Part shown: positions 39,235 to 56,768 of the stretch, one piece after another
How the letters are laid out: each line of letters starts with the position of its first letter
Position numbering within the stretch: the first letter of the stretch is position 1
IMG/VR virus record: IMGVR_UViG_3300029288_000147
DNA: 64,000 bases
Direction: 5' to 3' (one strand)
Source: an uncultured virus (IMG/VR IMGVR_UViG_3300029288_000147)
Taxonomy: Duplodnaviria > Heunggongvirae > Uroviricota > Caudoviricetes
Translations under genes and position numbers: made by a program
The notes under the pieces: generated by a model
Told to the model about the DNA's origin: nothing
Seen by the model: only the letters and a program-made list of their open reading frames with translations
Database searches by the model: none

Positions 39235-39242
39235 ATGTCATG

Positions 39243-40019: not shown

Positions 40020-40093
40020 TGCACTCGGTAGGAATTGAACCTACTTAGTATTGGTTAAGAGCCAATTGCATATATCCGGTCTGCCACGAGTGC
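40020..40093 (-). tRNA. tRNA-Lys(CTT)
   Basis: Cloverleaf; loop CT-CTT-AA. Confidence 0.85.
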
Positions 40094-40099
40094 ATATAG

Positions 40100-40116
40100 A
40101 TGCTGATTTTCAGCAT
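40100..40116 (-). terminator. Hairpin just after the Ro60 stop codon
   Basis: ATGCTGA/TCAGCAT inverted repeat. Confidence 0.4.
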
Positions 40117-40123
40117 CATATAA

Positions 40124-41773: not shown

Positions 41774-41821
41774 GATTTTTCTCCTTCTGCTACGTTAATT
41801 TAACGTGAATTTATAAAATTG

Positions 41822-41885
41822 GATAGGAATAATAATAATGTTATTTTGTACGATATTAACGTTGTAAACATTATTCCGCTCTATC
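41822..41885 (-). ncRNA. Y-RNA-like element A (minimal, 64 nt)
   Basis: GATAG-AGCGG-AATAATGTT-TACAACG..AACATTATT..ATTC-CTATC. Confidence 0.7.
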
Positions 41886-42005
41886 AATATGGACAACTAT
41901 GTTAATGTTTTAGAGGTGGTAGTCATTAACTTGGAGTTAAGATTCTTGTTTCATAATCTCTCTATTTGCATCCTCACGCCTTCTTTGCCCATTTTCCAAT
42001 AATCA

Positions 42006-42150
42006 ATATAGGAATATTATAAATGATATTTTTTTTTACTGTGCTACCACTACACTATCTCCTCCATATAAACATAATTTGGGAGAAGATCAGGAATCGA
42101 ACCTGAGCCAGTAGCTTAATATGCGTTGTAATCATTTATCCGCTCTATAT
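42006..42150 (-). ncRNA. YrlA-like Y RNA (element B) with circularly permuted tRNA domain
   Basis: Same closing motif; interior has T arm CAGG-TTCGATT-CCTG, then loop-closed acceptor stem, then D arm GTG-TAGTGGTAG-CAC. Confidence 0.82.
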
Positions 42151-42164
42151 TTTAATAAATAAAC

Positions 42165-42252
42165 TAAACATGAATTTTGATAATGTTATTTTTTGTGTAT
42201 GACTTATTTCAATAATAATTTATACGTTGTAAACATTATCCCGCTATGTTTA
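42165..42252 (-). ncRNA. Y-RNA-like element C
   Basis: TAAACAT-AGCGG-GATAATGTT-TACAACG..AACATTATC..ATTC-ATGTTTA. Confidence 0.7.
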
Positions 42253-42255
42253 TTG

Positions 42256-42342
42256 TGTTCTCGGTGAGACTTGAACTCACAGGTTTAGGTTACCCATCCA
42301 TGGTTCTTAGCCATGTGACTTTCCCAATTTGTCTACGAGAAC
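42256..42342 (-). tRNA. tRNA-Leu(AAG)
   Basis: Cloverleaf with long variable arm; loop CT-AAG-AA. Confidence 0.82.
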
Positions 42343-42354
42343 ATATTGTAATTG

Positions 42355-42426
42355 TGGACCTGAGGGGATTCGAACCCCTTACTTCGCGGTGCAAGCGCAA
42401 TGTTTTCCCAATTATACTACAGGCCC
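42355..42426 (-). tRNA. tRNA-Ala(TGC)
   Basis: G3:U70; loop CT-TGC-AC. Confidence 0.85.
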
Positions 42427-42560
42427 ATAGATTATTTACAAAACTTAGGATTTATTAGCGCGTCTCACCATAACCCAGTTTCCATGATTCCTATTACAGA
42501 AACGCTCTTTCAAGGTGATACAGGTATTGAGGCTACGCACCATATTTTGTAAACAATTTG

Positions 42561-42634
42561 CGGTGCATACGAGACTCGAACTCGCACTAACTTGCCGCGA
42601 CAAAGCAAGGTTCTACACATTAAACTAATGCACC
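42561..42634 (-). tRNA. tRNA-Asp(GTC)
   Basis: Loop TT-GTC-GC; G73. Confidence 0.75.
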
Positions 42635-42640
42635 AAATTG

Positions 42641-42747
42641 TGGGAATACCCGGATTTGAACCGAGATTTGGTTCAGAGATAAATCTCGTCATAACCAACG
42701 ACTACTTATAAAGATGCTGTCTGTCTTTACCATTTGACTATATTCCC
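42641..42747 (-). ncRNA. tRNA-like RNA with aberrant anticodon arm and extended variable region
   Basis: Acceptor GGGAATA/TATTCCC, D and T arms intact, ~57 nt between D and T arms. Confidence 0.65.
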
Positions 42748-42809
42748 AGGCGATAAATCAACATAGTGTACTTTACGATCGATTATTTCCAAGCTATATT
42801 AATTTATCA

Positions 42810-42893
42810 TGGTGGTAGTGGTAGGACTCGAACCTACATAGCCTCACGGCGTCTGATTTACAGTCAGGTTACCTTGCCATCGGAATCACTACC
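42810..42893 (-). tRNA. tRNA-Tyr(GTA), CCA encoded
   Basis: Loop CT-GTA-AA, long variable arm, ACCA end. Confidence 0.85.
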
Positions 42894-43518
42894 TAATATT
42901 TTTTAAGAATGTTTTACCATAATATTTTTGCCAAATATTACCAAATTGATTTTCTATGGACAATAGTTCTTCTTTTTTTAACATATTAGAATGAACTAAT
43001 CTATGACAGTTAGGGCATAAATAACATAAGTTTGTATGATCATCAAAATTTTTTATTTTTTTACCATTTATATGATGTATATCACCAACCGCTTCATTCC
43101 AGCCACAATTTGAACATCCTATATTTTCATACCTTATTAGTCTTTTCATAATTTTTGAAATAGTTCTTTTACTTAATTGAGAAAATTTTTGAGGTTTTTG
43201 TATATTATGTTCAACCTTTCTTATACAATTACTACAATGTTTTTTTCTATCACTTTTAAAATATCTAATAAATTTTTTACCACATTTTTCACATATATGT
43301 GTTAACTGTTCCCGCTTACATTCTTCACATAATGAATCATTTTTTATATAAGCTGACGCTATAAATTTTTTGGAACATTTTTTACATATTATTTCTTTTG
43401 TGTATAATCTTATATGATGATTTTTTTTACATTCTCTACATACTTTATTATTAGGTGATCTTAGTCCAACTTTTAATTCTTTTTTACATATAAAACATTT
43501 TATTATTTTTGTTTTCAT
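42889..43518 (-). CDS. HNH endonuclease with multiple CxxC zinc ribbons
   Basis: CSNCGW..DIHHING..NLCYLCPNCHRLVH. Confidence 0.85.
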   Translation of the reverse strand: MKTKIIKCFICKKELKVGLRSPNNKVCRECKKNHHIRLYTKEIICKKCSKKFIASAYIKNDSLCEECKREQLTHICEKCGKKFIRYFKSDRKKHCSNCIRKVEHNIQKPQKFSQLSKRTISKIMKRLIRYENIGCSNCGWNEAVGDIHHINGKKIKNFDDHTNLCYLCPNCHRLVHSNMLKKEELLSIENQFGNIWQKYYGKTFLKNIR

Positions 43519-43583
43519 AATATTACTCTTATATCTATGTTTATATATATTAAATATAATGTATATTATGAAAAGTCACTATT

Positions 43584-43610
43584 TTTACAGTCAGGTGCCG
43601 TTACACTACC
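43584..43610 (-). pseudogene. 5'-half remnant of tRNA-Tyr
   Basis: GGTAGTG..ACCTGA-CTGTAAA matches the 5' acceptor strand and anticodon arm of tRNA-Tyr 42810-42893. Confidence 0.55.
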
Positions 43611-43873
43611 ATTTTTAATTTTATCTTGAATATAAGAAGTAAGAATATTTATTCCTTTATATTCGGGGATTACATCATAAGAATTATCTTTATTTCTTAT
43701 TTGATATTCTATTTTATATCTAGAATTTATAATAATTCTTAAAACGCCATATTTTGTTTCATATTTGCATTTTCCAAAGGTTTGCAAATCTACTAATAAG
43801 TCACTATAAAACTTGCAAATTTCATCTGTAATTAATTGCTCATTATCTTTAAATGTTTTCATTATTAAAACCT

Positions 43874-44257
43874 TTATTGTAATTCTAAACAATAATATTC
43901 ATTTCTATCTTCGTCGTTTTGTCTCAATATACTATGTTGAGTTGGGATAAAAATATTATCTTCAATTAGATATCCATATTGAGCCCATACATATTGATTT
44001 ATAGTATGTTCATCTAAGTTTCCACATCCTCGTATAGGATAAATTTTCATGCAAGTTACACAATCATTAGGTATGTCAATAATCATATGCACATCATTAG
44101 ATACAAATGCTGTATCATTTATTTCACAGAACCAATCTCCCACAGCTACAATCTTGACCACCCGATCATAAACATCTGTATTATTATATTGTGTAGGAGT
44201 GCTACAACTTAAACACAAAATAATAGACAATATTAAAATCAGATATTTGATGTTCAT
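43874..44257 (-). CDS. Putative lipoprotein
   Basis: Signal peptide with LSC lipobox-like sequence. Confidence 0.5.
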   Translation of the reverse strand: MNIKYLILILSIILCLSCSTPTQYNNTDVYDRVVKIVAVGDWFCEINDTAFVSNDVHMIIDIPNDCVTCMKIYPIRGCGNLDEHTINQYVWAQYGYLIEDNIFIPTQHSILRQNDEDRNEYYCLELQ

Positions 44258-44287
44258 TTATAAAATCCCTTATATAATTAATGTTTG

Positions 44288-44359
44288 CTCCCACCCGAGG
44301 GTTTGAACCTCAATTATCAGATTCAAAGTCTGATGTCCTGCCAATTAGACGAGATGGGA
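44288..44359 (-). tRNA. tRNA-Gln(TTG)
   Basis: Loop CT-TTG-AA. Confidence 0.88.
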
Positions 44360-44595
44360 ATATTTATTGTGTTTCTAATTCACCATATTTCATATTCATT
44401 TTAGCTGGGATTAATTGAATTAAATCATTCCCAGGTAATATTAAATGACGAGCGTATCCATTTTTTACTTTAATTTCAACATAATCACCATATTTATCAA
44501 TTTCATAAAATGATTTTGAATTAGATGCTTTTATAACCCAAAATGACTTTTTACCACTGGGAGTTTTCATTATTAGTTTATAATATGTCATAGTG

Positions 44596-44672
44596 TACTC
44601 GTGGTTGGAATCGAACCAACATGTTACCAATTAACCTTTCTACTCCTTATCAGAGAGAGGGTATACACGAGT
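44596..44672 (-). tRNA. Arm-swapped tRNA-like gene, anticodon GAT (Ile)
   Basis: Acceptor-TATACCCT-anticodon arm CTCT/CTGATAA/GGAG-D-like arm GTT/AATTGGT/AAC-T arm-A73. Confidence 0.72.
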
Positions 44673-44674
44673 AT

Positions 44675-44780
44675 AGGAAATAGTAGGATTTGAACCTACA
44701 CATATGTGCAGAGCATCGATGAATACACATACTTATCAACAATTTCTAAGATTGTCAGCTTAATCTTTGCTCATATTTCC
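44675..44780 (-). tRNA. tRNA-Leu(TAG)-like with ~39-nt variable arm
   Basis: ACAAT-CTTAGAA-ATTGT; oversized variable hairpin; U73. Confidence 0.65.
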
Positions 44781-44782
44781 TG

Positions 44783-44858
44783 TAGCCCGGGTAGGATTTG
44801 AACCTACGCATATTGGTATGTAACACCAGTGCCGTAGACCAGACTTGGCGACCGGGCT
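44783..44858 (-). tRNA. tRNA-Val(TAC)
   Basis: Loop GT-TAC-AT. Confidence 0.78.
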
Positions 44859-44863
44859 ATAGT

Positions 44864-44979
44864 AATTAAATAGGAATATAGAAGATGATGGTTCCAGTTT
44901 TTTTTAAGTGAACTTGGTAAAAACACTGAGCTGTGTTCAATGCATAGCGTTGTAATCACCTCCACCGCTCTATTTAATT
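44864..44979 (-). ncRNA. Y-RNA-like element D
   Basis: AATTAAATAG-AGCGG-TGGAGGTGAT-TACAACG..ATCATCTTCTA-T-ATTC-CTATTTAATT. Confidence 0.7.
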
Positions 44980-44980
44980 G

Positions 44981-45053
44981 TGCCGATGGGTGGAACCGAC
45001 CCACAACTCTCAAGTGCTTATGAAACACTGATTCTAACCCGTAGATCATCGGC
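44981..45053 (-). tRNA. Degenerate tRNA, anticodon CAT (Met/Ile2)
   Basis: Loop TT-CAT-AA; non-canonical T loop GTCGGTT and small D arm. Confidence 0.55.
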
Positions 45054-45072
45054 ATTAACCTTTATGCATTTG

Positions 45073-45166
45073 AAGCGGAAACGTGGGAGTCGAACCCACT
45101 ATCACGAGCTTATGAGGCTACGTATGGTATGACAAAATTAATTATCTTCCGTTCCACCCGTCCGCT
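45073..45166 (-). tRNA. tRNA-Met(CAT)-like with enlarged D loop
   Basis: Loop CT-CAT-AA, T arm GTGGG-TTCGACT-CCCAC, ~20-nt insertion in D loop. Confidence 0.6.
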
Positions 45167-45182
45167 ATAATTTATTTAATTG

Positions 45183-45256
45183 CCCCAACAGAAGGATTCG
45201 AACCCTCAACTTTGGTTTTGGAGACCAATGTGTTGCGCAATTGATACCATGCTGGG
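45183..45256 (-). tRNA. tRNA-Trp(CCA)
   Basis: Loop CT-CCA-AA. Confidence 0.82.
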
Positions 45257-45260
45257 ATTG

Positions 45261-45333
45261 TGGCGACTCGCGGTATCGAACCGCGTTCTTTGGATTTTCA
45301 GTCCAACGCAATGACCTCACTTGCTCAGCCGCC
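45261..45333 (-). tRNA. tRNA-Phe(GAA)
   Basis: Loop CT-GAA-AA. Confidence 0.82.
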
Positions 45334-45495
45334 ATTTTTTAAATTAATATTGTGTTGGACCTAAACGTGAACACAACCACGCTTCAATAAAACATCATGT
45401 TGTCATCATGTGCTATCTCTCTGCCGCTCCAGTGACAACCATTACATAATGACTAACTTTATATAATTGGTTGTTTGCGTATTAATTTAAAATTG

Positions 45496-45578
45496 AGGAA
45501 GGTAAGGGACTCGAACCCTTAGACGCTTACACGCCTCCAGTTTTCAGGACTGGTTCCTCATCCAGCCGGATACCTTCC
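45496..45578 (-). tRNA. tRNA-Ser(TGA)
   Basis: Long variable arm; loop CC-TGA-AA (C33). Confidence 0.82.
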
Positions 45579-45586
45579 ATATTTTG

Positions 45587-45660
45587 AGCACCTTATGGGG
45601 TACGATCCCATATAATTAGAGTGGAAGTCTAATATGTTGTTCCATTTACATCAAAGGTGC
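45587..45660 (-). tRNA. tRNA-Gly(TCC)
   Basis: Loop CT-TCC-AC; U73. Confidence 0.8.
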
Positions 45661-46486
45661 GTAAGTTATGCATTTTTATTAATCGACTAACTTGAGTATG
45701 ACTTATATTTAAATCCTCAGCAATTTTAGTAATAGATCCCCACTTTAATTGCTTATTTTTGTTTATAAAATCTATAATATAATTTATTTGATTTATTTTT
45801 ATTTCTTCTCTAATTTTTATACAAGAAGATTTTTTTATTTCTCTTTCTTTTATTTTATTATTTTTTCTTTCAATTCTATGATTAATTATTTGCTGTATTT
45901 CTTTTTCTAAAACTATATGATTTTTGGACGATATTGTATCATTTATTGTTTTTAGAATAAATTTTTCATTAAAACATAAATAGTATGGTATTTCTATTAT
46001 TACCCAACCTCTTTTTTCAAAATAATTATGTCTATTTCTATAATATTCTAATAACTCTCCACTTTTATCATAATGGAAATTTCCATTTATTTCAAATCCT
46101 ATTTTTAATTCTGGAATAGCAAAATCTAATTCATATAATCTGTCATTATCTTGTGGTATATAATATTGATAAAATCTTATGTTTGTTTTTTGTGCTATTT
46201 CTCTAAATCTTTTTTCTGGCTTTGTTTCTTTTTTGGGATTTGGAAATCTATTTTTTATATTTTGTTTTATATATTCTTTTAATTTTTTTGAAATTTTTTG
46301 TTTTGTTTCTTTAGATAGATGCTTACCATACCAATAATTTTTATTACCACTATTAGATTCACTTATTTTTCTTTTATGGTTATATGAAAAAAAGTATTTA
46401 TGTGGGTTTTTGTCACAATGTATAATGTGACCACCCAACTGTTGCTTTTTATTAAATTCTGAATTACAATATTTACATTGATACAT
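45629..46486 (-). CDS. Putative homing endonuclease (C2H2-like finger + NUMOD3 + DUF559 + HTH)
   Basis: CKYC..H..HC; NYWYGKHLSKETKQKIS; YELDFAIPELKIGFEINGNFHY. Confidence 0.78.
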   Translation of the reverse strand: MYQCKYCNSEFNKKQQLGGHIIHCDKNPHKYFFSYNHKRKISESNSGNKNYWYGKHLSKETKQKISKKLKEYIKQNIKNRFPNPKKETKPEKRFREIAQKTNIRFYQYYIPQDNDRLYELDFAIPELKIGFEINGNFHYDKSGELLEYYRNRHNYFEKRGWVIIEIPYYLCFNEKFILKTINDTISSKNHIVLEKEIQQIINHRIERKNNKIKEREIKKSSCIKIREEIKINQINYIIDFINKNKQLKWGSITKIAEDLNISHTQVSRLIKMHNLRTFDVNGTTY

Positions 46487-46492
46487 TAAATG

Positions 46493-46717
46493 CTAATCCG
46501 TTAAACACCATAGATACATATAATATTCTTTTAAATCTAAATCAGCAGCTCTTCTTTTTTTTCTATCAAAAAACGTTTTACCATTTCTACAATAACCACA
46601 ATTCCCTCTTCCACCATGATTTGGGTTTGTTGATCGACATGACCAATCAAATCTCCTTGAATCATAGTATGGTTTTCTCCAATCTTTTCTATTTGGATAG
46701 AGATTATCAAAAGCCAT
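46493..46717 (-). CDS. Small hypothetical protein
   Basis: RKPYYDSRRFDWSCR..HGG..CGYC. Confidence 0.55.
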   Translation of the reverse strand: MAFDNLYPNRKDWRKPYYDSRRFDWSCRSTNPNHGGRGNCGYCRNGKTFFDRKKRRAADLDLKEYYMYLWCLTD

Positions 46718-46750
46718 AAACTACCCTTTATTAAATTATATAAAATATTG

Positions 46751-46821
46751 TAGGCCTGCACGGTATTGATCCGTGTTCAATTGGTTAAAAGCCAATTGCT
46801 TCACCTTAAAGCTTCAGACCC
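46751..46821 (-). tRNA. tRNA-Lys(TTT)
   Basis: Loop CT-TTT-AA. Confidence 0.82.
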
Positions 46822-46852
46822 ATAAAACCAATCTTCAATATCTTTTATCTTG

Positions 46853-46926
46853 AGCAAAGGACGGGAATTGAACCCGCGTAGTCTACCTTGGCAAGGTAGT
46901 GCATAAAGCCTCTCTGCCACCTTCGC
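46853..46926 (-). tRNA. tRNA-Gly(GCC)
   Basis: Loop TT-GCC-AA. Confidence 0.85.
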
Positions 46927-47053
46927 AAATTTATTGGACATTGTAAACCATTGCAATGGGCTTTCTTTTACAATATCACTATAATAATCTCACTTCAGAT
47001 TGGTATGCGCATACCCAGAAAGCTCTCCTTTCAATGAGATTGTTTTATATTTG

Positions 47054-47127
47054 TGGACCTACTGAGACTTGAACTCAGATGCATGGGTTAAAAGCCCATT
47101 CCGTTACTCTTTTACGGGCATAGGTCC
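47054..47127 (-). tRNA. tRNA-Lys(TTT)
   Basis: Loop CT-TTT-AA. Confidence 0.82.
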
Positions 47128-47138
47128 AAATTTAATTG

Positions 47139-47211
47139 CTGCACCGGTCAGACTTGAACTGACATCTCCATGCTTAACAGGCACGTGTTTTAACATTAGT
47201 ACTACGGTGCA
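47139..47211 (-). tRNA. tRNA-Asn(GTT)
   Basis: Loop CT-GTT-AA. Confidence 0.85.
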
Positions 47212-47233
47212 ATATCCCAAAATGACTTCTTTG

Positions 47234-47317
47234 TGGAGCTATGAGATTCGAACTCACGAAAGCACATCATTAATTACTTGATGCCGAATTCCAATTCGTT
47301 TACTTACTATGAGCCCC
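47234..47317 (-). ncRNA. tRNA-like RNA with Ala-type acceptor and no canonical D/anticodon arm
   Basis: GGGGCT..GTGAG-TTCGAAT-CTCAT-AGCTCC-A; G3:U70. Confidence 0.6.
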
Positions 47318-47318
47318 T

Positions 47319-47409
47319 TGGTCACGGTGATCGGACTCGAACCGATTAACAGATGATTAGTCTTACAAGGTTGAAGGCCTTGCTGCTCGTCCACTTTGCA
47401 TTCACCGCG
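47319..47409 (-). tRNA. Atypical tRNA, anticodon TTC (Glu), long variable arm, CCA encoded
   Basis: CAAGG-CCTTCAA-CCTTG; ~19-nt variable region. Confidence 0.7.
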
Positions 47410-47412
47410 ATA

Positions 47413-47664
47413 TTACGTATAAACATCATATGTTTTCTTAAAAATGTCAAGTTTTACAGGATAAAATTCATTATGAATTCCCTTAACAATCATATCATTT
47501 TTGTGTGCAAACATTTCACCTTCTAATGTTTTAATGATAAGATTACCTTTATCATCAAATTTTGCGTGTCTATCAACAAATTCAATAATATCTTGTTTGT
47601 TATTACCAGTCCATTGTAATGCAAAAACAACAATTGGTTTTTTAACGTATCTTTTGGCTTTCAT
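47413..47664 (-). CDS. Conserved phage protein (related to 26366-26650)
   Basis: YVKKPIVVFALQWTG..IKTLEG..GEFYP-like motif. Confidence 0.6.
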   Translation of the reverse strand: MKAKRYVKKPIVVFALQWTGNNKQDIIEFVDRHAKFDDKGNLIIKTLEGEMFAHKNDMIVKGIHNEFYPVKLDIFKKTYDVYT

Positions 47665-47967
47665 TTTATGTTTGGTCCAATATAATATTTTTTGTATTTA
47701 TGAACTAAAGTCTTAAATCTTTTGTTCATATCATTGCTTCTTTTTGAAAAACAACCTTGATCAATATAATATAAAATATTGTATTTTTGTTCTATGGTCT
47801 CAGTTGCATTAGGTAATGCTGATTTTTTTAAGTCTTTTACAAAATCAAACCATTCATCAGGTATACTAGGCGTTGGCATCATTTCCCAATAAAATGCTGG
47901 TATAAATGTATGCTCTACGCCAGATATTGTCTGTTTAAATTTTTTAAAATTATACATATTAATTATG

Positions 47968-48053
47968 CTCCACGATTAGGAATCGAACCTAAGATGAGAG
48001 TTTCCTCTGATTGGTTAACAGCCAATTGCCTTCGTCCGCTCGGCCACCGTGGA
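47968..48053 (-). tRNA. tRNA-Asn(GTT) with long variable arm
   Basis: Loop CT-GTT-AA; variable hairpin AGAG-GAAA-CTCT. Confidence 0.78.
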
Positions 48054-48062
48054 ATAAATTTC

Positions 48063-48208
48063 CGTAGCGGCGGGAATTCCACCCGCTTAAAATAGCTCTC
48101 GAGATACTATTTTTCTGTTAGGCAACAGAATTACCATTATAATCCTTCGGGCGCCTATCTCCTATCTATTATAATGTGTCATAGCTTCTTTACTATGATT
48201 CACGCACG
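48063..48208 (-). ncRNA. Multi-hairpin RNA with tRNA-like acceptor/T-arm end
   Basis: Four AU-rich hairpins then GCGGG-TGGAATT-CCCGC and closing CGTGCG/CGCTACG. Confidence 0.55.
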
Positions 48209-48210
48209 TG

Positions 48211-48282
48211 TGGTAACGAGTGGACTTGAACCACCAACACCCTGGGCTTCAGCCAAGTGCTCTACATTTGAGCTACGTTACC
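48211..48282 (-). tRNA. tRNA-Phe(GAA)
   Basis: Loop CT-GAA-GC. Confidence 0.85.
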
Positions 48283-49259
48283 ATATATTCATTCTTTATA
48301 AGGATTCGGTTTTATGTGGTCACCATATAGTTTATTAATCAAATCCTTAATATATCTATTATTATCACCTTTAATCTTAACTTCTCTATAACAGGGCCAA
48401 TGTCCGTCTTTTAATTGACGATAATAAACTAATTCCCATTCATGTTCAATGCATAAATCTCGTAATTGATCCTCAACTATAAAATGTTCATTTTCAGTTA
48501 AGTATAAGCAAAAATAATGCGCATCTTTCATATAATCAATTTAATATTATTATTTAAATATATCATCCTGACATTTTTGACAAATACCTGAGATTAAATA
48601 TTCTTTTTTTGATAATACATCTCTGAAATCATTCATGTCAATTTTATTGTGACAAAATACGCAAATATTTTCTTTAATGCAATCTGTTAATGATTTGCCA
48701 AAAAGTGTTTCTGAAACTTGGTTACATAATTGTTCAAGTTGTTCTGATTTTTCTTTCATTTTAAAATCCTTTTAATATTGATTTAAGCTATACTTTTGTC
48801 AAAAACTGAGCAAGTAATGTATATCCATTATTAAGTTTAACTAATGCATCTTGATTATTAAATTCTTTTTCTGGTGTATTTTTGACCCATTTACCTTTGT
48901 ATAAAAATGTTTTAACAACATATACTTTATCTGGTGACATATTATGTTTTTTTAAATTTTGTTTAGTTTCTCTATCACCATCAGTCCATAAGTTTTGTCT
49001 AATTTTGACTTTATCTCCTGATTTTAAATTAGTTGTTAATGATTCTTTAATTAAAGATTTTAATTTTACCATTTAATATTCCTCAAATATTATATTTTTT
49101 CTTTCTCTAAGTATTTCATATGCCTTGTCACAATCGATACTATTATCATTTTTTGTAGGTATATTTAAATGGTAAAAATCTAAATATTCTAACAAATCAT
49201 CTTCATCTAATGACCAAATGTCACGGTCATCCATTTGTTCGATTGATGTAAACAACATT

Positions 49260-49679
49260 TTAACCCTCTTTTTTAACTGGCCAATAATAAGGTAAATTAT
49301 CTTTCTCTTTCCAATTAAATTGAGAATACCATTGTAAATTTTTTCTTAAAAGATTTGATCTATGACTTGAGTGTAATTTTTTATTACCAAACCAAAAAGG
49401 ATAATCAAAATAAATATCATAAGGAATATATTTTAATTTGATATTATTAAAACCTTTTAATTGCCATAATTCACATGCATAATTGTAGTAACATTTTAAT
49501 GCATCTAAATTATCTTTCCACATTAATACAGCTGGGTGATTTTTCCATGCATTTGTCTTTTGTTTACCTGACAATATATTAATGATTTGAAAAGCTTCTA
49601 CTCGTTGTTTTCCTAATCGTTTATTATCCAAACAGTCTAATGATAAAAAGAAATCTTCATAAGGAATGAATGTTTGCAT
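49260..49679 (-). CDS. Pyrimidine-dimer DNA glycosylase / MSMEG_6728-like protein
   Basis: MQTFIPY..LDNKRLGKQRVEA..HPAVLMW..HSSHRSNLLRK. Confidence 0.8.
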   Translation of the reverse strand: MQTFIPYEDFFLSLDCLDNKRLGKQRVEAFQIINILSGKQKTNAWKNHPAVLMWKDNLDALKCYYNYACELWQLKGFNNIKLKYIPYDIYFDYPFWFGNKKLHSSHRSNLLRKNLQWYSQFNWKEKDNLPYYWPVKKEG

Positions 49680-49683
49680 AATA

Positions 49684-49713
49684 TAAATATAATAAAATCA
49701 TTTGTCATATAGA
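49684..49713 (-). promoter_or_regulatory. Conserved phage promoter motif, copy 8
   Basis: TCTATATGACA-N13-TATTTA immediately before the ATG. Confidence 0.6.
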
Positions 49714-49764
49714 CATTTTTATTAAGTATAATAAAAACATAAAATTATATATTATTTATATATT

Positions 49765-49973
49765 TATATAGACTATAAGCGGGATTCTGTTTTATGTAAT
49801 TATCTTTCTAAGCCTCTACCAGATTATCATAGGTCTGCTCACCACCTAAATCACTTTGAGTTGCATCCTCAGTAGTATAACGAAATATATATTTCTTCTA
49901 CTTTAAGCAGAGATGTCCCGACTTTCCTCAGATAAAAACTGGAATGTTCCATCTGCAATTACTCGTCTATATA
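49765..49973 (-). ncRNA. rnpB: Minimal RNase P RNA (~210 nt)
   Basis: P1 TATATAGAC/GTCTATATA; CR-I GAGGAAAGTCGGGAC; CR-V AACAGAATCCCGCTTA; P2 GTAATT/AATTAC; P3 CAGAT/ATCTG; P5 CATC/GATG. Confidence 0.85.
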
Positions 49974-50232
49974 ATAAAATATTGTTCTAGCAACTGAACG
50001 TATAGCCTGTTTTCTATACTCACCTCGGTTGGTTACGTGGACTGTAGTAGCATGTCTAAATCACTAACAATTTAATGTAGCCTTGGTAAATGTCCTCTTT
50101 GACATCAGCATGATTTAGCTCCGTTGAACAATATTTATAACTTGTATAATGATTTTGGGCTGACTTTTAAATTACAACCAATACAACACATTTAATAGTG
50201 TCCGCTAATACGCGTTCAAAATCATTATATTG

Positions 50233-50318
50233 TATCCCAGGTGGGAATTGAACCCACACGCCTACTTTATTCGGCACTGGCTCCTAAGGCCAGCGTGTCT
50301 GCGTTCCACCACTGAGAC
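50233..50318 (-). tRNA. tRNA-Leu(TAG)
   Basis: Loop CT-TAG-GA, long variable arm. Confidence 0.88.
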
Positions 50319-50415
50319 ATATACAGTTAACAATCCTAAACATATCCTAGTTGATAATACATATAGACGTCTTATATGTCTCCAACATTACCAGTGCGGT
50401 GTTGTTAACTATTTG

Positions 50416-50491
50416 GGTAGCCGAGGAGATTTGAACTCCCGATCATTGGATTCACAGTCCAAGGTCTTAAACCAACTAAACGACGGCTACC
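50416..50491 (-). tRNA. tRNA-His(GTG)
   Basis: Loop CT-GTG-AA; G-1:C73. Confidence 0.9.
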
Positions 50492-50538
50492 ATGAAATTA
50501 ATCAAAAACTTTTTTAAGAACATCAACCTTCCAAGTTG

Positions 50539-50618
50539 TACCCCCAGAGGGACTCGAACCCTCATTTTTCATTCCAATTACCTGCTTACAGTTTAGAAGA
50601 CTGCGCGGATACGGGGGC
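50539..50618 (-). tRNA. Arm-swapped tRNA-like gene, anticodon TCT (Arg)
   Basis: GCCCCCG-TATCCGC-GCAGT/CTTCTAA/ACTGT-..AATTGGAA..-T arm-TGGGGGT-A. Confidence 0.68.
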
Positions 50619-50625
50619 ATATTTG

Positions 50626-50699
50626 TACTCGAGGAAGGACTTGAACCTTCGATCTTTGCCATGTCAAGGCAACGATTTAGCCAACTAATCTACTCGAGC
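50626..50699 (-). tRNA. tRNA-Val(GAC)
   Basis: Loop TT-GAC-AT. Confidence 0.88.
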
Positions 50700-50951
50700 A
50701 CATAAACAATTACTGTATAGCTATAAAATTTGTGCCATTTCCATCTTCAGGCCATTCAGGAATTTGTTCATGCATTACTTTATGAAAGTTATAAATATTT
50801 CCTTTTTCAAGAAGTAAAAGAGCATCGCAGTGAGGGCAATTAAGTGTAGCACTAATATTCATTAATTCGTTATTATTAATGTCAGTATAAAAACTTTTAT
50901 TGCACTCAGTACAAATAAATTGCATAATTTTTAACCTTTACTTGATTTTAG

Positions 50952-51027
50952 TGGACCTCCTGGGATTCCAACCCAGCTGCTATCTCGGGTGCAAGCCGAG
51001 TGACCACCGCTAGCAGTCCCGAAGCCC
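50952..51027 (-). tRNA. tRNA-Ala(TGC)
   Basis: G3:U70; loop CT-TGC-AC; T loop TTGGAAT. Confidence 0.8.
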
Positions 51028-51348
51028 ATTTTTTAACTATTGCTTATATACAGCCAAAGGTTTATAATCATCCCTATTGGGGTTAATACCTTTTTCTACA
51101 ATATGAATTTCATCAAAATTATTTTCAGGATTGAAACTTTGCGCAAGATTATTTATATCTTCTGCCATTCCTTCCCAATCTAAATCATCTGCATCAAATC
51201 CTTTTTTTACGCTGAAATTAACTGCGAACTGTTTCTTAAAATTTTGAAACTCACCATTCTTTTTTTGCTTTCTTGTCCAAGCTACACATGAAATTAACAT
51301 AGTTTTTTCTCCATTTAACTTTTGATTGATAAAATAGGGTATTTTTTG

Positions 51349-51425
51349 CACCGTATACGGGAATTGAACCCGCCTGATATCCTCCGTGACAGGGAGGCGG
51401 CCACAACCAAGCAGCCCCATACGGT
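51349..51425 (-). tRNA. tRNA-Asp(GTC)
   Basis: Loop CT-GTC-AC. Confidence 0.85.
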
Positions 51426-51433
51426 ATATTTTG

Positions 51434-51503
51434 CTTACATAATAGGATTCGAACCTATACCCCTGAACTAAGGTTCAGTGTGCTTCCATTACACTATATA
51501 TAA
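51434..51503 (-). tRNA. tRNA of undetermined identity (6-nt anticodon loop CCTTAG)
   Basis: Good acceptor, D and T arms; stem CTGAA/TTCAG encloses only 6 nt. Confidence 0.55.
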
Positions 51504-51594
51504 CAATCTTGATAATATTTCGGCAGTATATTATATGATTGTAGGCTGGGTGATAAGTTATTCCCTGCCGAGAAGCGTCTATCACTGTCCCTAG

Positions 51595-51672
51595 TACCCT
51601 TGATAGGATTTGAACCTACATGATTCCAAGTTAATCTTTCTACTCGTTCGTAGCGAGAGGATATACAAGGGC
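51595..51672 (-). tRNA. Arm-swapped tRNA-like gene, anticodon ACG (Arg)
   Basis: GCCCTTG-TATATCCT-CTCG/CTACGAA/CGAG-D-like arm GATT/AACTTGG/AATC-T arm-CAAGGGT-A. Confidence 0.72.
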
Positions 51673-51692
51673 ATATTTACTTAATTAAAATG

Positions 51693-51780
51693 AGCCGGCG
51701 ACAGGACTCGAACCTGCAGTGGACTTTTACATCGGCGGCTTACAAAACCGCTGCCTTCAGCCAATTCGGCTCACGCCGGC
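51693..51780 (-). tRNA. tRNA-Thr(TGT) with long variable region
   Basis: Loop TT-TGT-AA. Confidence 0.78.
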
Positions 51781-52022
51781 AAAATGTTATTATCTTTACA
51801 AACTTTATATAGAAGCTGCTCTAAATTTTCACAATTTTTACCAAACTCAACATATTCTGATGATAATTTTTCGTCATCATCTTTGAAATAACCATGGAAC
51901 ATATAATTATATTTTTCTCCATCATGAGAAATAATCTTTATATTCCAAAATTTATTTGTTATTGCAGCTAAATATTTTCCAATTAATTCATTATTCATTA
52001 TATAACCTTTTTATTTAATTTG

Positions 52023-52094
52023 TCGAGAAAGCTGGATTTGAACCTGCATCTCCGTGCTTCCAGGGCACGAGCTTTAACATTAAGCTACTTCTCG
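52023..52094 (-). tRNA. tRNA-Pro(TGG)
   Basis: Loop CC-TGG-AA (C33, A37). Confidence 0.75.
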
Positions 52095-52100
52095 ATATTG

Positions 52101-52174
52101 AGCTGCCAATGAGAATTGAACTCATATCCTATCCTTACCAAGGACAAATTCTAAACCGATTAAACTATGACAGC
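52101..52174 (-). tRNA. tRNA-Thr(GGT)
   Basis: Loop TT-GGT-AA. Confidence 0.82.
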
Positions 52175-52180
52175 AAATTG

Positions 52181-52256
52181 AGGCCCCAGTAGGAATCGAA
52201 CCTACGAATAGAGAGGTTGCAGCTCTCCGCGTTATAAACCATTTCGCCATGGAGCC
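52181..52256 (-). tRNA. tRNA-Cys(GCA)
   Basis: Loop CT-GCA-AC; U73. Confidence 0.88.
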
Positions 52257-52393
52257 ATATTTTAAATAAATAATTGATCTTCTATATTGTAATTATAGTG
52301 TTTTTTTCTAAAAATACAAATAATAAAGTTTAAAACTTTTTTCAATTTAATTACCAATTTTAATTATACTATATAAGGCAGGAATTTATTGTG

Positions 52394-52466
52394 TGCTTCG
52401 GATGGGACTTGAACCCATAAACCCATGCTTTTGAGACACGTTCCTTTGCCAATTTGGTACCGAAGC
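52394..52466 (-). tRNA. tRNA-Leu(CAA) with short variable loop
   Basis: Loop CT-CAA-AA; 5-nt variable loop. Confidence 0.75.
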
Positions 52467-52499
52467 ATATTCGATTTAGCAGAATCTTTTAAAAAATAT

Positions 52500-52598
52500 C
52501 AACATCCAAGAATAATCATCGTAATATGGATCGTATAAATCATACATCGATTGATAATATAATTCATAAGCAAATAATTCAAGAAATGATTTTTGCAT
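52500..52598 (-). CDS. 32-aa Tyr/Asp-rich small ORF
   Basis: SD AAAGGA; MQKSFLELFAYELYYQSMYDLYDPYYDDYLGC. Confidence 0.4.
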
Positions 52599-52622
52599 TT
52601 TTATTTTCCTTTAAAGATTTTG

Positions 52623-52697
52623 TAGGAGCGGTGGGAATTGAACCCGACCTCGGGGTGTTTATAAGACACCTTCCACCAACCAGATGGACTCGCTCCT
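52623..52697 (-). tRNA. tRNA-Ile(TAT)
   Basis: GGTGT-CTTATAA-ACACC; A73. Confidence 0.8.
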
Positions 52698-52815
52698 ATA
52701 TTTAATAATCAAGAAATGATGGTTTTTATTTTATTTCGAAACTCAACAAAACGAAACTTTAATAAAATTAATATGGTTTTTTTACAAGAACATTTACATA
52801 TTTTAAACTTGCTTG

Positions 52816-52898
52816 TATCGGAGGCGAGATTTGAACTCGCACGGCAATATTGCCTTGAGGGTTTAAGCCTCATATGTCTCCCGTTCCATCACTCCGAC
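52816..52898 (-). tRNA. tRNA-Leu(TAA)
   Basis: Loop CT-TAA-AC, long variable arm. Confidence 0.88.
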
Positions 52899-52909
52899 AT
52901 AATGTACAT

Positions 52910-52939
52910 ATAATATAACCTATTTCTTTGTCATATAGA
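52910..52939 (-). promoter_or_regulatory. Conserved phage promoter motif, copy 9, heading the tRNA array
   Basis: TCTATATGACA-N13-TATTAT ending 11 nt before tRNA-Leu(TAA). Confidence 0.72.
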
Positions 52940-54125
52940 CAAGTTTTTATAATTTATTATTTATATTATACTTATGCACTAAACTACTTATTATATTATA
53001 TTTATAAATATTATTATATATTAGAAATGTCATATTTTTGGCTAAATAAATTTTTATTTTTTCATAATTATTCATTACCACTTTTAAATCCTACTGATCT
53101 ATTATCCAATTTACCATCTATATATGGTTTAAATAAATTAATTTCTCTATCTTTGTCGACTTTTATACTATAGCCTAATTCTAATTTAGAGTCATATTCC
53201 ATCATTGTTTTTGAAAAAATAGAATTAATTTGTTTTGAAAATCTTTCTATTTGAGTTAATCCAGATATTGGAAAATAAAAATATTTATCACCAGTTTTTG
53301 TAACTAGAACATGATTGTCATGACTATAATATGTTGTTAATACTTTTATTCTAGTATTGTCTGGCACTATAATATCACCTTTCTTTATTCCTTTTATGCA
53401 ACTTTTAAATTCGATTAATTTCATATTTAGAAACTCCATACTTTATTATTAATCTATATAAAATTTCATGAATAATATAAAATACAAGGATTATTATACA
53501 ACTAAACACATTATTCTCCTTTTTCTTTCCATTCCTTATTTTCACCCGTGGGAATAAATTCTTCAATTACTCTAAATATTCTAAATATAGGGTATTTTTG
53601 AACCTCATTTTTATGACGATTAACCATACAATAAAATCCTTCTTTAACATAACAGTTATCAATATCTTCAAATGCCATTGGCAAAGATTGATCTCTATTT
53701 TGTACTTTAATTGTCAATGTTTTATGCTTTTTCATTTTTAATTTCCTTTTATATATTATAAAAAATTATGACTCTGATGTATATGGTGGTCTATAATCTT
53801 CCAGATGATAATTTTTGTATTGTTTTTCTAAATCTTCTAATTCTTTTTTAAGATTTGATTATCATTATTCTTTAAATATTCCTTCAAATAAGCAAGTCTA
53901 TCAATATCTTCTTCTATTCTTCCACCTGATGATGTCATTATTTGGCCTCCTCATTTTTATTAATATGTTCAATTATATTATCTATGTCTTTATTTATCGC
54001 ATATATTATGCTTTTTAATTCTTCTATTTTACATAACACATGATCATCTGGTAATTCTTTTACTCCAAATACTCCTTCATGAATAATTTTTGATCTTGGT
54101 GGAATTGGGTATCTTTTTATCATTT

Positions 54126-55238
54126 TTAACCTCTAGTCTTATTTTCAATTAAAGTATTAGTTGAAACCTTAATAAATTCTGTATTTTCTTGATAATGTTG
54201 AATATTCATAGCGTTACAATAACTCATTGATGATCGTAGCCCACCTTCATAATCTTTTATAATTTCTTTTAATGATTTAGGTTCACCAAATGATTTTAAC
54301 ACATGAGAAACACCTTCATATGTTCTATTTATAGCAAATGTTGATTCACCTTTATATTCTTTTCTCCAATCCATTGTTGGTTGCCAATCATAACCTTTAC
54401 CTATCGGTAGTCTATTATACGAAGGAACTTGTTCCATTATTGGACCCCAATCTGGGCTTTCTTTAGCATAAGCTAATATTTTGCCCATCATTACACAATC
54501 AGCACCCGCAGCAATTGCTTTACAAAAATCAGCAGGTTTTTCAATTCCACCATCCGCGATTAATGTAATATCACTTCTTTTAAGTACAGAAGCAATTTCA
54601 ATTATGGCAGATAATTGAGGAACACCAATTCCAGTCATAATTCTCGTACTACAACAACTTCCCGGTCCAATTCCGACTTTAATCCCATCTATATCTAATT
54701 CTTTATATATTTTTGCTGCTTCAGTAGTTGCTATATTTCCAACAACAATGTCAAAATTTAATTCTGTATGTTCTTTTAATCTATTTTTGTATTGTATTAT
54801 TTTTTTTACTTCTTCATAAACTTTATCATTGGCAGCATTTGCTACATCTAGAACAACAACTTTTGGGAAAAAATAATCATAATGAACAGAATCATCAAAT
54901 TCTTTTTTTACTTTGTGTAAAACTAATTCATCTAATAGTTGTTTCCAACCAATAATTCCAATTGAAATTCCAAAATTTTCATTTTTTATTTTTGTTATTT
55001 CTAAAAAATGATCATGTATTGGACCAAATCCTCTATGCAATATCCCAATACCACCTTCGTCTGACATAGCTTTGCACATATTAGAATCAGTTACGGTTCT
55101 CATATTAGCTGAAGATATTGGAATACGTAATTTTACGTTTCTTGAAAAATTAGAAGATATATCGACATCCATTCTTGAATTAATATGAGTCCAAGATGGA
55201 TTAATTAAAACATCATCAAATGTAAATTTTTCTATCAT
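54126..55238 (-). CDS. guaB: IMP dehydrogenase / GMP reductase family (no CBS domains)
   Basis: TFDDVLI, SANMRTVT, GIGPGSCCSTR, IADGGI, AGADCVMMG, GGLRSSMSY; IMPDH vs GMPR not resolved. Confidence 0.82.
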   Translation of the reverse strand: MIEKFTFDDVLINPSWTHINSRMDVDISSNFSRNVKLRIPISSANMRTVTDSNMCKAMSDEGGIGILHRGFGPIHDHFLEITKIKNENFGISIGIIGWKQLLDELVLHKVKKEFDDSVHYDYFFPKVVVLDVANAANDKVYEEVKKIIQYKNRLKEHTELNFDIVVGNIATTEAAKIYKELDIDGIKVGIGPGSCCSTRIMTGIGVPQLSAIIEIASVLKRSDITLIADGGIEKPADFCKAIAAGADCVMMGKILAYAKESPDWGPIMEQVPSYNRLPIGKGYDWQPTMDWRKEYKGESTFAINRTYEGVSHVLKSFGEPKSLKEIIKDYEGGLRSSMSYCNAMNIQHYQENTEFIKVSTNTLIENKTRG

Positions 55239-56768
55239 CTATATTTCCTTATTGCTGAATTCAAACCCAATAGGTTTGTTTTTAATATCATTAAAATCTC
55301 CTAATTAATTTATTACGCATTTGTTATGGCATATAATAACATATTTTGCTATATATGAGGCAATTTTATTATTTATCATTAATTCATCAAATTCATTTAT
55401 TAATTTACTTTTTCTTTTTTTTAAGAAAAAACATAATATGCCATTTATTTTCATACTTAATTCTATAATTCTATGTGCTATAACAATATCAGTTGATGTT
55501 GCATTATATTTTTTACATGCATAATCAAAATTATAAGAATCTATTACGGCAATAGCTACTCCGACCGGTGGCATATTTTGCTCCTATTAATAAACCACGT
55601 CTTCTAAATTAATATCATAAGGCGGGATTCCTTCGATGTCAATGACTTCTGTTTCTATTCCCTCTAAATTTCCAATGATAATATTCATTATTGAAAGTCC
55701 ACATCATCATCAAACAAGACGAGTTGATCATTATTTTTTTCTAATGATATAAATAAATGAGGCGTTTTTTCTTCTTTTTGTTCACCATTTGATGAAATAA
55801 ATGATAAGTCATATAATTTAACTAAAATACCAATTGTTTTATTTTCATTGGATATTTTAATAAATAAAGAATCATCATTTTCTTTTTTTTCTAAAGAATA
55901 TTTCATGAATTAATACCTCTTTTTTAATTTGCTGGTTTACTATTTTTATTTTGTGTATTTTTGCAAATATTAATTAATTCATAACAAGCATCATATAAAC
56001 TATCACAATCACCTACTTTTTGTGTTATTATTGCTTCATCAATTCTTTCAAATGACCTTACATCACAAGAAGAATATGAAGATATAGAGTTGATATATTC
56101 TACATTTTTTGCAAATGTTTCTTGTATTTTTCTCAACGTTGTATTAATAAGTTCTACAACAACAATGTCTTTATAATTAGAAAGATTTTCTATTCTTTCT
56201 TTTTTCATAAGAAGAAGAGTTTCAATTTGTTTTTCTAATTCTAATAGTCTAATTGTTGGATGGTTTGGATTCATCATTTTGATTTTCCTCTGTTTTTATT
56301 TTTTTGTGTCTATCTCTAATAATATTTACTGCTTCTAATAATTTAAACGCAAATCTTTCTGCATATTCTGCATCAACTAATAGTGAAAAAGAATCTTCTA
56401 AATAATTATTTATTTCTTCTTCTGTTCCATTTAATCTATTAGGATATCTTAAATTACCATTTCTATCATAATTTTCACCAACAATCATAATGCCATCTTG
56501 TGGTATTATTTCACCATTATCTTCAATATAATCTTTCAAAATTTGTATTGACATTATATATTGAAATTCATTTGAACACTCTAAAAATTCTTTAAAGTTG
56601 TTGTTATAACATTGTTTTCTTTCGTTTTCTAATTCGTTCCATTCTTTTAAATCTGTAGCATCCATATCATCATCAATGTCATCATTCCAATAGACTTCAT
56701 AAAATTCTTCAACAGGCGTAATTGATTTGCTCATTGTGAAACTCCTTTTTATTTTTATATGGTTATTG

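Follow-up and report, generated by a model that had tools for sequence, protein, structure and literature searches.

Putative phage tRNAs with the anticodon arm predicted to lie inside the D-stem analogue: a widespread family with apparently undescribed wiring

Transfer RNAs (tRNAs) or tRNA genes that depart from the standard layout have been described in several systems. In D-armless mitochondrial tRNAs, a short replacement loop lies on the 5' side and the contact between GG and the T loop is lost. The permuted tRNA genes of Cyanidioschyzon merolae are processed so that a canonical mature tRNA is restored. The D-armless mitochondrial tRNAs are covered in PMC7609411 and PMC4013460; the former, a 2020 review of noncanonical tRNAs, covers tRNA-Sec, allo-tRNA, tRNA-Pyl and mitochondrial tRNAs, and the word 'phage' is absent from it. 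Here we describe three tRNA-like genes in a 64,000-nucleotide (nt) stretch of DNA from an uncultured virus (IMG/VR record IMGVR_UViG_3300029288_000147), the whole of which is called the window below. We propose, with a probability of roughly 80%, that these genes encode working phage tRNAs for Ile-GAU, Arg-ACG and Arg-UCU, which belong to a phage-borne structural class with a rewired core. No description of such an architecture was found in open-access full text and bioRxiv, in agreement with a first-pass annotation of the sequence that had not recognized it as a known class; it is apparently an undescribed tRNA class with new wiring.

The first-pass annotation had placed a rearranged order of elements at 44596-44672, 50539-50618 and 51595-51672, and reading each gene on the minus strand bore this out. 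The order common to the three is acceptor, UAU, anticodon hairpin, purine-rich linker, UAA(C)UUGG, T arm, acceptor and A73. Each gene has an acceptor stem of 7 base pairs (bp) and an anticodon stem of 5 positions, and the anticodon loops read CU-GAU-AA (Ile), CU-UCU-AA (Arg-UCU) and CU-ACG-AA (Arg-ACG). None encodes CCA, as read from the 3' flanks. The genes and their predicted parts, all on the minus strand, are as follows:

44596..44672, minus strand: candidate type-1 rewired tRNA-Ile(GAU), 77 nt, without encoded CCA (sequence; covariance model R1, 92.2 bits; homologs in 84 phage records)
44660..44662, minus strand: 5' strand (ACC) of the Ile gene's outer stem, the putative D-stem analogue; its partner is GGU at 44634-44636 (columns 11-13 and 37-39 of the alignment)
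44642..44658, minus strand: anticodon arm of the Ile gene, U.U plus 4 bp, loop CUGAUAA, GAU at 44649-44651 (stem covaries in homologs)
44634..44636, minus strand: 3' strand (GGU) of the Ile gene's outer stem, after the linker A-GAAA (pairing across alignments and RNAalifold)
44621..44633, minus strand: putative single-stranded D-loop mimic and short variable-like tail of the Ile gene, UAAUUGGUAACAU (connector conservation, R15/Y48)
44597..44620, minus strand: T arm (44604-44620) and 3' acceptor strand (44597-44603) of the Ile gene, with A73 at 44596 (sequence, alignments)
51595..51672, minus strand: candidate type-1 rewired tRNA-Arg(ACG), 78 nt (Rfam tRNA 28.5 bits; R1 82.2 bits; homologs in 7 Streptomyces phage records)
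51660-51662 with 51634-51636, minus strand: outer stem of the Arg-ACG gene, AUC with GAU; anticodon ACG at 51649-51651 (sequence)
51620-51633, minus strand: connector of the Arg-ACG gene, UAACUUGGAAUCAU, with A after GG (sequence)
50539..50618, minus strand: candidate type-2 (variant) rewired tRNA-Arg(UCU), 80 nt (R1 56.2 bits; subfamily of 22 sequences)
50605-50608 with 50581-50585, minus strand: outer stem of the Arg-UCU gene, CCGC with GC-A-GG (one bulged A); anticodon UCU at 50595-50597 (sequence)
50564-50580, minus strand: connector of the Arg-UCU gene, UAAUUGGAAUGAAAAAU (sequence)

ARAGORN, a run of which the first-pass annotation had proposed, called 35 tRNAs and one transfer-messenger RNA (tmRNA) in the window, all on the minus strand, and made no call at the three rewired loci. 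The Rfam tRNA model (RF00005) matched only the gene at 51595-51672, which scored 28.5 bits (cut-off 29); in the alignment to the model this gene has no D arm, and 19 nt of its variable region count as an insert. The Ile-GAU and Arg-UCU genes had no Rfam tRNA match at E <= 1, and beyond the sub-threshold tRNA match no family of Rfam 15 matched any of the three. The covariance model R1, which had all three genes in its training set, scored them at 92.2 (Ile), 82.2 (Arg-ACG) and 56.2 bits (Arg-UCU), and canonical tRNAs of the window at no more than 24.3 bits. Folding of each gene by itself gave z-scores between -1.8 and -2.4, which are not decisive. The outer stem is present in the minimum-energy structures of the Ile and Arg-UCU genes; in that of the Arg-ACG gene the anticodon arm is wrong. 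Groundwater metagenome DNA contigs from a different study match 44449-45284, across the Ile gene, and other stretches of the window with 0-1 differences, and therefore place the same phage in a second habitat, in addition to a landfill sample from which it may have come.

Homologs were found with BLAST, with motif scans and with a covariance model, the last as the first-pass annotation had advised, and the outer stem covaries in them. In a BLAST database of 50,697 phage records, the Ile gene had matches of 80-90% identity in 84 phage records (82 Streptomyces, 1 Microbacterium, 1 uncultured), the Arg-ACG gene in 7 Streptomyces phage records and the Arg-UCU gene in two Pseudomonas phages. Nearly none of the 60 Ile-gene matches listed had an annotation beneath it, and one was labelled 'tRNA-Leu'; gene 108 of phage EGole is an Ile-GAU homolog with this label. 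Phage Mildred21 gene 169 (31368-31443), annotated 'tRNA-Phe(gaa)', has the loop CUUCGAA and hence the anticodon UCG (Arg), and its gene 147 (26380-26454), annotated 'tRNA-OTHER', is an Arg-UCU variant.

IMG/VR was scanned with three motifs that fixed different regions of the molecule and placed no constraint on the rest. With motif 1, anchored in the 5' half, GAAA and UAA, the acceptor and T arm were in register in 100 of 126 matches listed (at least 92 distinct sequences); about 9 of the 26 rejected matches resemble members with a weaker acceptor stem and were left out. Motif 2, anchored in GAAA, the connector and the T loop with the 5' half free, gave 116 of 121 matches listed in register (at least 103 distinct), and motif 3, anchored in the 5' half and GGTTC with the connector free, gave 117 of 121 (at least 99 distinct). 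The sequence sets overlap and the counts are samples. When motif 1 was applied to 596 Gb of bacterial and archaeal genomes, only 2 of the 120 matches listed were real, as against the many in IMG/VR, and the family is therefore strongly enriched in phages. The two bacterial-genome members (L167, L241) have no adjoining tRNAs, and their context is uninformative. ARAGORN made no call at 57 of 60 family loci, called an over-long tRNA-Ile at two and placed one call on the opposite strand. A model search of five whole phage records found one member in each (E <= 1e-6), a search in which divergent type-2 copies may be undercounted. To judge from these sequence comparisons, the three genes are members of a widespread phage tRNA family that is overlooked by standard tRNA finders.

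The type-1 members share the consensus acceptor(7) - U A U - NNN - C - U NNNN - CUNNNA(A/C) - NNNN U - N GAAA - N'N'N' - U A R (Y) Y G G W N R C A Y - T arm - acceptor - N73. Two alignments were analyzed: A1, 95 sequences made up of the 5'-anchored motif-1 set and the three window genes, and A2, 100 sequences in which the connector and outer-stem columns were free in the search. The acceptor stem is paired in 98.2% (A1) and 98.4% (A2) of cells, with both-sided changes at 7/7 and 6/7 pairs. The T arm consists of a 5-bp stem, paired in 98.5% of cells in A1, and a 7-nt loop of the GUUCRANYC type, with TTCG or TTCA as its first bases in 91 of the 95. With the 5' half free (motif 2), the anticodon loop starts with CU in 99 of 103 sequences, A37 is present in 103 of 103 and all four inner pairs form in 99 of 103; the anticodon stem covaries across homologs (A1, A2, RNAalifold). 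The canonical D hairpin (positions 10-25) is absent, as just 3 nt separate the acceptor stem from the outer stem.

The outer stem carries the argument for a rewired core. Its three pairs are standard in 94, 95 and 94 of the 95 A1 sequences, with both-sided changes in 43, 40 and 20. In A2, 299 of 300 cells are paired, and 12 stem variants occur: CCC/GGG, CUC/GAG, CGG/CCG, ACC/GGU, CGC/GCG, UCC/GGA, CAC/GUG, CCG/CGG, AAC/GUU, AGG/CCU, GCC/GGC and CGG/GCG, the last with one mispair. Shifting the partner by one column lowers overall pairing in A2 from 94% to 46-49%, and RNAalifold predicted the outer stem unprompted. As a control, all three outer-stem positions pair in only 3 of 117 chance motif-1 matches from bacterial genomes. 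This pattern indicates that the D-stem analogue is a 3-bp helix between the strand before and the strand after the anticodon arm, with the D-loop-like sequence single-stranded; since it joins the strands that flank the anticodon arm, that arm would be nested inside it.

The Arg-UCU gene represents a second type. A motif made from this gene and its Pseudomonas-phage relative found 26 loci in IMG/VR, 23 of them distinct and 21 with a good acceptor stem. Alignment A3 has 22 rows (20 from IMG/VR, the window gene and a Pseudomonas phage copy); the shorter L492 and the chance matches L498 and L507 were left out. Sequences of this type have a U-A-N-N linker on the 5' side; their outer stem, C-N-N with N-N-G, is paired in 88% of cells with both-sided changes at 2/3 pairs, and their connector reads UAAUUGGA-NNNN-AAAAU. 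The N-N of the linker pairs with the two bases directly 3' of GGA: pair 10-49 is GC in 12, AU in 6, CG in 1, UA in 1 and other in 2 of the 22 sequences, and pair 11-48 is CG in 12, UA in 4, AU in 2 and other in 4. Together with the outer stem, one continuous 5-nt strand therefore pairs with a 3' strand that is split by a D-loop-like bulge. The window gene forms a subtype with L486 and L489, with a 4-bp covarying outer stem and one bulged base at the same place on the 3' strand (CCGC/GC-A-GG, UGGC/GU-G-CA and UGGU/AC-G-CA; three sequences, read from aligned rows). By analogy, U10 of type 1 may pair with the conserved purine after N20; U10 never varies.

The identity elements speak for a role in translation. 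A20 is the main determinant for bacterial ArgRS according to PMC9976931, whose Table 1 lists A20, C35, U/G36 and A/G73 for arginine and A73, the anticodon, A37, A38, U20, U12-A23, C29-G41 and C4-G69 for isoleucine. Both Arg genes of the window have A after GG, C35 and A73, and the Ile gene has U after GG. This distinction, along with A20 as an arginine element, had been pointed out in the first-pass annotation, and it generalizes across the homologs: A follows GG in 41 of 42 Arg anticodons and 0 of 53 others in A1, in 24 of 24 and 1 of 79 in the motif-2 set, and in 12 of 12 and 1 of 87 in the motif-3 set. The one Arg sequence of A1 that departs from this, L073, is shifted in the alignment and likewise has A after GG; U follows GG in 84 of 87 non-Arg members of the motif-3 set. 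A73 is found throughout the Ile and CAU members of A1 (53 of 53), and position 73 in the 42 Arg members is A or G in 37 and U in 5. Compared with the bacterial Ile set, the Ile gene has A73, GAU, A37, A38, U after GG, an A-U pair in the outer stem and C4-G69, and has U29-A41 rather than C29-G41, given the position equivalence that we infer. A20 thus appears to track arginine identity across three homolog sets.

The range of anticodons is narrow. In the samples from motifs 1, 2 and 3, respectively, UAU was found 23, 61 and 69 times, GAU 15, 13 and 14, ACG 28, 10 and 7, CAU 14, 4 and 4, UCU 6, 11 and 5, CCU 4, 2 and 0, and UCG 2, 1 and 0 times, with one UAC. The anticodon was free in motifs 2 and 3, and the whole loop in motif 2, so the restriction to Ile, Arg, CAU and one Val was not forced by the search. 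Members with CAU would be Met, or Ile after lysidine formation. The UAU and UCU anticodons are one base change apart. Methionyl- and valyl-tRNA synthetases are class Ia enzymes. Those for arginine and isoleucine are grouped in subclass Ia as well (PMC9976931).

The genomic context also fits with translation. Neither ARAGORN nor Rfam called a canonical Ile-GAU, Arg-UCU or Arg-ACG gene in the window, as had been claimed, and its canonical set includes Ile-UAU and Arg-CCU. The first-pass annotation's proposal that the rewired genes fill these isoacceptor slots finds support in the homologs' contexts. The 40-kb tRNA region of Mildred21 has four members, namely Ile-GAU (unannotated), Arg-UCG ('tRNA-Phe'), Arg-ACG (unannotated) and Arg-UCU ('tRNA-OTHER'), and, Arg-CCU apart, no tRNA carries an Arg annotation in this stretch, in which Ile-UAU and Ile-GAU are annotated too. 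A complete 310-kb phage record has 23 ARAGORN tRNAs without Arg-ACG, and one Arg-ACG member lies inside the array; a 208-kb phage record has 6 ARAGORN tRNAs, none for Arg, and one Arg-UCU member inside the array. Family members thus seem to sit in phage tRNA arrays and usually to supply an isoacceptor that has no canonical gene there. Three features of the window bear on this context:

39079..56843, minus strand: tRNA gene array with the three rewired genes and 35 ARAGORN tRNAs, every one on the minus strand
1178..2620, minus strand: phage tRNA nucleotidyltransferase, predicted CCA-adding enzyme (PHROG phrog_2244, E 3e-59), relevant because none of the three genes encodes CCA
40124-41773, minus strand: Ro-like RNA-binding protein, 549 aa, inside the tRNA array

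The Ro-like protein lends itself to another explanation. Phages counter tRNA-targeting defences with tRNAs of their own, and with a Ro-like RNA-binding protein inside the tRNA array both in the window and in Streptomyces phages, the genes might encode non-translational tRNA-like RNAs that act as decoys for defence nucleases, as ligands of Ro-like proteins or as regulators. We regard this as unlikely: A20, A73 and the anticodon are conserved in concert, for which a decoy would have no obvious use, the anticodons are complementary to those of each phage's canonical tRNAs in coverage, and no Y-RNA-like family of Rfam was matched.

If the search leaves it free, the connector between the outer stem and the T arm is conserved more strongly than any other part of the molecule. 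In A2, its U, A14, GG and CA are each present in 100 of 100 sequences, and a purine stands two positions after N20 in 97 of 100; U8 is invariant in the family. The R15/Y48 combination, which we compare with the Levitt pair of ordinary tRNA, is AU in 65, GC in 30, GU in 2 and other in 3 of 100. Its states switch between relatives that are at least 90% identical elsewhere in four clusters, so the double switch is not a single inherited event. Furthermore, in A1, where GG and the T loop were free, A19 occurs with U56 in 2 of 2 sequences and U56 in 0 of 93 with G19 (from aligned rows). A19-U56 would be the expected replacement of G19-C56, and both sequences may share one origin. Three IMG/VR Arg-ACG members (L088, L096, L097) have no GG; two have G-A with a UUUG T loop (A19/U56) and one has A-G with a UGCA T loop (G55). 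The connector is thus likely to act as a D loop plus short variable loop that keeps canonical tertiary signatures.

These observations bear on the view that the genes encode D-armless tRNAs of the ordinary kind (compare mitochondrial tRNA-Ser(AGY)), their anticodon stem being extended and their connector being a loose spacer rather than a D-loop mimic. The Rfam alignment of the Arg-ACG gene, with its deleted D arm and 19-nt insert, agrees with this view, and the outer stem could also be seen as prolonging the anticodon stem. A loose spacer, however, would show no conservation, covariation or tracking of A20, and the connector has all three: the invariant positions, the R15/Y48 covariation together with the A19/U56 switch, and the Arg determinant A20 in step with the anticodon. 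We therefore consider it quite improbable.

The first-pass annotation had instead seen a displaced D stem that covaries (GTT/AAC in the Ile gene, GATT/AATC in Arg-ACG), which corresponds to a complete D arm, stem and loop, transposed 3' of the anticodon arm as a local hairpin. Local complements do occur, as GUUA/UAAC (Ile), GAUU/AAUC (Arg-ACG) and GUA/UAC (Mildred21 Arg-UCG). Among the 95 homologs, however, the pairs are standard in only 40% and 47% of cells in the two registers, nearly all variation breaks pairs and neither register has convincing covariation. The hairpin would also need bases of the outer stem, which are paired in more than 98% of cells, and RNAalifold predicted no hairpin in the connector. 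The claimed covariation thus did not hold up, and a transposed D arm is very improbable. The same figures speak against a long variable arm of the type II kind: no hairpin stem with convincing covariation was found between the anticodon and T arms of the homologs. Decaying pseudogenes or chance tRNA-like sequence, a view in line with the rejection of the three loci and their relatives by tRNA finders, have next to no probability and are refuted by the conservation pattern, as compensatory changes preserve every helix across hundreds of distinct sequences and the family motif, which occurs twice in the window, occurs in none of 100 window shuffles.

We accordingly return to rewired, working tRNAs and propose the following fold. 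The acceptor stem and T arm are canonical, and comparison of the homologs shows the three bases after U8-A9-U paired with a triplet on the 3' side of the anticodon arm. The resulting D-stem analogue encloses that arm and, we infer, stacks on it. The consensus gives U.U, 3 bp, C-G, a second U.U and 4 bp, or about ten layers, which matches the D stem, position 26 and anticodon stem of ordinary tRNA. Because the strand after U8-A9 runs into the anticodon stem, it would take the place of 22-25, 26 and 27; the strand that leaves the anticodon arm on its 3' side leads into A14...G18G19...N20 and would therefore take that of 10-13 and the D loop. The segment comprising 10-13 and the D loop would thus have moved from before to after that of 22-25, 26 and the anticodon arm. 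U-A14-R15-Y-Y-G18-G19-N20-N-R would leave the 3' strand of the outer stem single-stranded and without a hairpin, and C-A-Y48 would lead into the T stem, the final C-A-Y standing in for the end of the variable loop. Contacts of U8 with A14, of R15 with Y48 and of G18/G19 with the T loop would then produce the L shape. The earlier suggestion of a rewired topology able to form an L therefore stands in part: the order, the D-loop element 3' of the anticodon arm and the L-shape requirements are seen in the homologs, and the D hairpin at that site is not.

In terms of function, transcripts would be cut from the tRNA array and receive CCA from a host or phage enzyme. Host IleRS and ArgRS would charge them, with recognition of the anticodon and of positions 73 and 20, the latter being A in Arg and U in Ile members, and decoding would be normal, supplying isoacceptors missing from the canonical set of the phage. 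A tRNA without a D arm is accepted by E. coli HisRS, EF-Tu and the ribosome, according to PMC11551756; since this machinery tolerates it, function of the rewired tRNAs is plausible. Phages might keep the fold to evade tRNA-directed defence, a hypothesis raised by the first-pass annotation, or as a neutral frozen accident. More tentatively, and with considerable doubt, the family might be a topological tRNA isomer, with the anticodon arm nested in the D stem and a canonical tertiary core, that occurs only among class Ia substrates (Ile, Arg, Met/Ile of the CAU type and perhaps Val) and persists as a poor substrate for host tRNA-directed defence nucleases or decay while still chargeable and decodable; it would then be a natural, structurally orthogonal scaffold.

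Several points weigh against working tRNAs with this fold. Canonical copies of the three isoacceptors may lie outside the 64-kb window, of which 25 kb matched no phage record by megablast and a 60-base end tag had no match in IMG/VR, and Mildred21 has a canonical Ile-GAU, so that its Ile-GAU member is redundant and gap-filling is not universal. The Arg-UCU gene is a poor match to the type-1 model (56.2 bits, with 4 non-standard pairs), and its structure is drawn from 22 sequences, only 3 of which are of the exact subtype. As each motif scan forced some positions, invariance is meaningful only at positions free in at least one scan, and the three sets remain samples. Related sequences inflate the covariation counts, and independent events are bounded only roughly. 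The conserved GAAA bulge and the two U.U oppositions are not accounted for by the proposed fold, which in three dimensions is deduced from connectivity and covariation.

Further features were noted near the rewired genes and elsewhere in the window:

44675-44780, minus strand: tRNA-like gene of 106 nt, 2 nt from the Ile gene; Rfam tRNA 50.5 bits, no ARAGORN call; loop CUUAGAA (UAG, Leu), 36-nt variable-region insert, D loop without GG, U73
42641-42747, minus strand: Rfam tRNA 43.5 bits, no ARAGORN call; 52 nt replace the 17-nt anticodon arm and may be an intron or insertion
42813-42893, minus strand: tRNA with loop CUGUAAA (GUA, Tyr) and long variable region; Rfam 37.7 bits, no ARAGORN call
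51433-51503, minus strand: 'tRNA-???' of ARAGORN with a two-base anticodon (tt); Rfam tRNA 52.8 bits; anticodon loop apparently shortened
63644-63994, minus strand: tmRNA with the tag ANENFALAA (ARAGORN)

Mildred21 has a CCA-adding enzyme, a Ro-like protein and a tmRNA, as in the window phage, plus an RNA ligase. In Streptomyces BE-cluster phages (Mildred21 13168-13780; Jay2Jay 1494-2105), the unannotated rewired Ile-GAU starts about 15 nt past a short 'nucleotidyltransferase' gene, which in Mildred21 has the note 'tRNA nucleotidyltransferase'.

If the proposed fold is correct, it would be a new entry in tRNA structural biology, a different chain topology with the same tertiary logic, and the L shape would be reachable by more than one wiring. 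It would account for 'missing' Arg and Ile isoacceptors in phage tRNA sets, provide a new model to add to tRNA finders and correct annotations, with Mildred21 gene 169 being Arg-UCG instead of 'tRNA-Phe' and most copies at present unannotated. The family would also be a natural test of which parts of the core are read by defence nucleases that cleave tRNA, by synthetases, by EF-Tu and by the ribosome. As some carriers are in culture, namely Streptomyces BE-cluster phages and a Pseudomonas phage, this can be put to the test directly.

With canonical tRNA (RF00005), the family shares an acceptor stem of 7 bp, a T stem of 5 bp whose loop is of the GUUCRANYC type, a 7-nt anticodon loop with U33 and A37, a length of 75-80 nt, position 73, the signature bases U8, A14, R15/Y48 and G18G19, and probably the synthetase determinants. 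Unlike canonical tRNA, it has no D hairpin: the strand after U8-A9 goes straight into the anticodon arm, and the pairing partner and D-loop sequence lie 3' of that arm. It also has the conserved GAAA bulge and two U.U oppositions, and scores at or below the Rfam cut-off. With the D-armless mitochondrial tRNAs (metazoan tRNA-Ser(AGY), nematode) it shares the lack of a D hairpin and a non-cloverleaf anticodon limb, but it has a 3-nt 5' linker, UAU, and a 13-17-nt 3' connector with the full D-loop signature. The permuted tRNA genes of C. merolae and engineered circularly permuted tRNAs likewise keep the L shape with a changed order of segments; the phage genes differ in their normal acceptor ends, and the internal rearrangement would persist in the mature RNA. 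Finally, allo-tRNAs and tRNA-Sec-like 8/4 or 9/3 tRNAs are also noncanonical and came from metagenome mining, some in phage clusters, as reported in PMC5389517. Those tRNAs alter helix lengths and keep the acceptor-D-anticodon-variable-T order, whereas the phage family has canonical helix lengths and an altered order.

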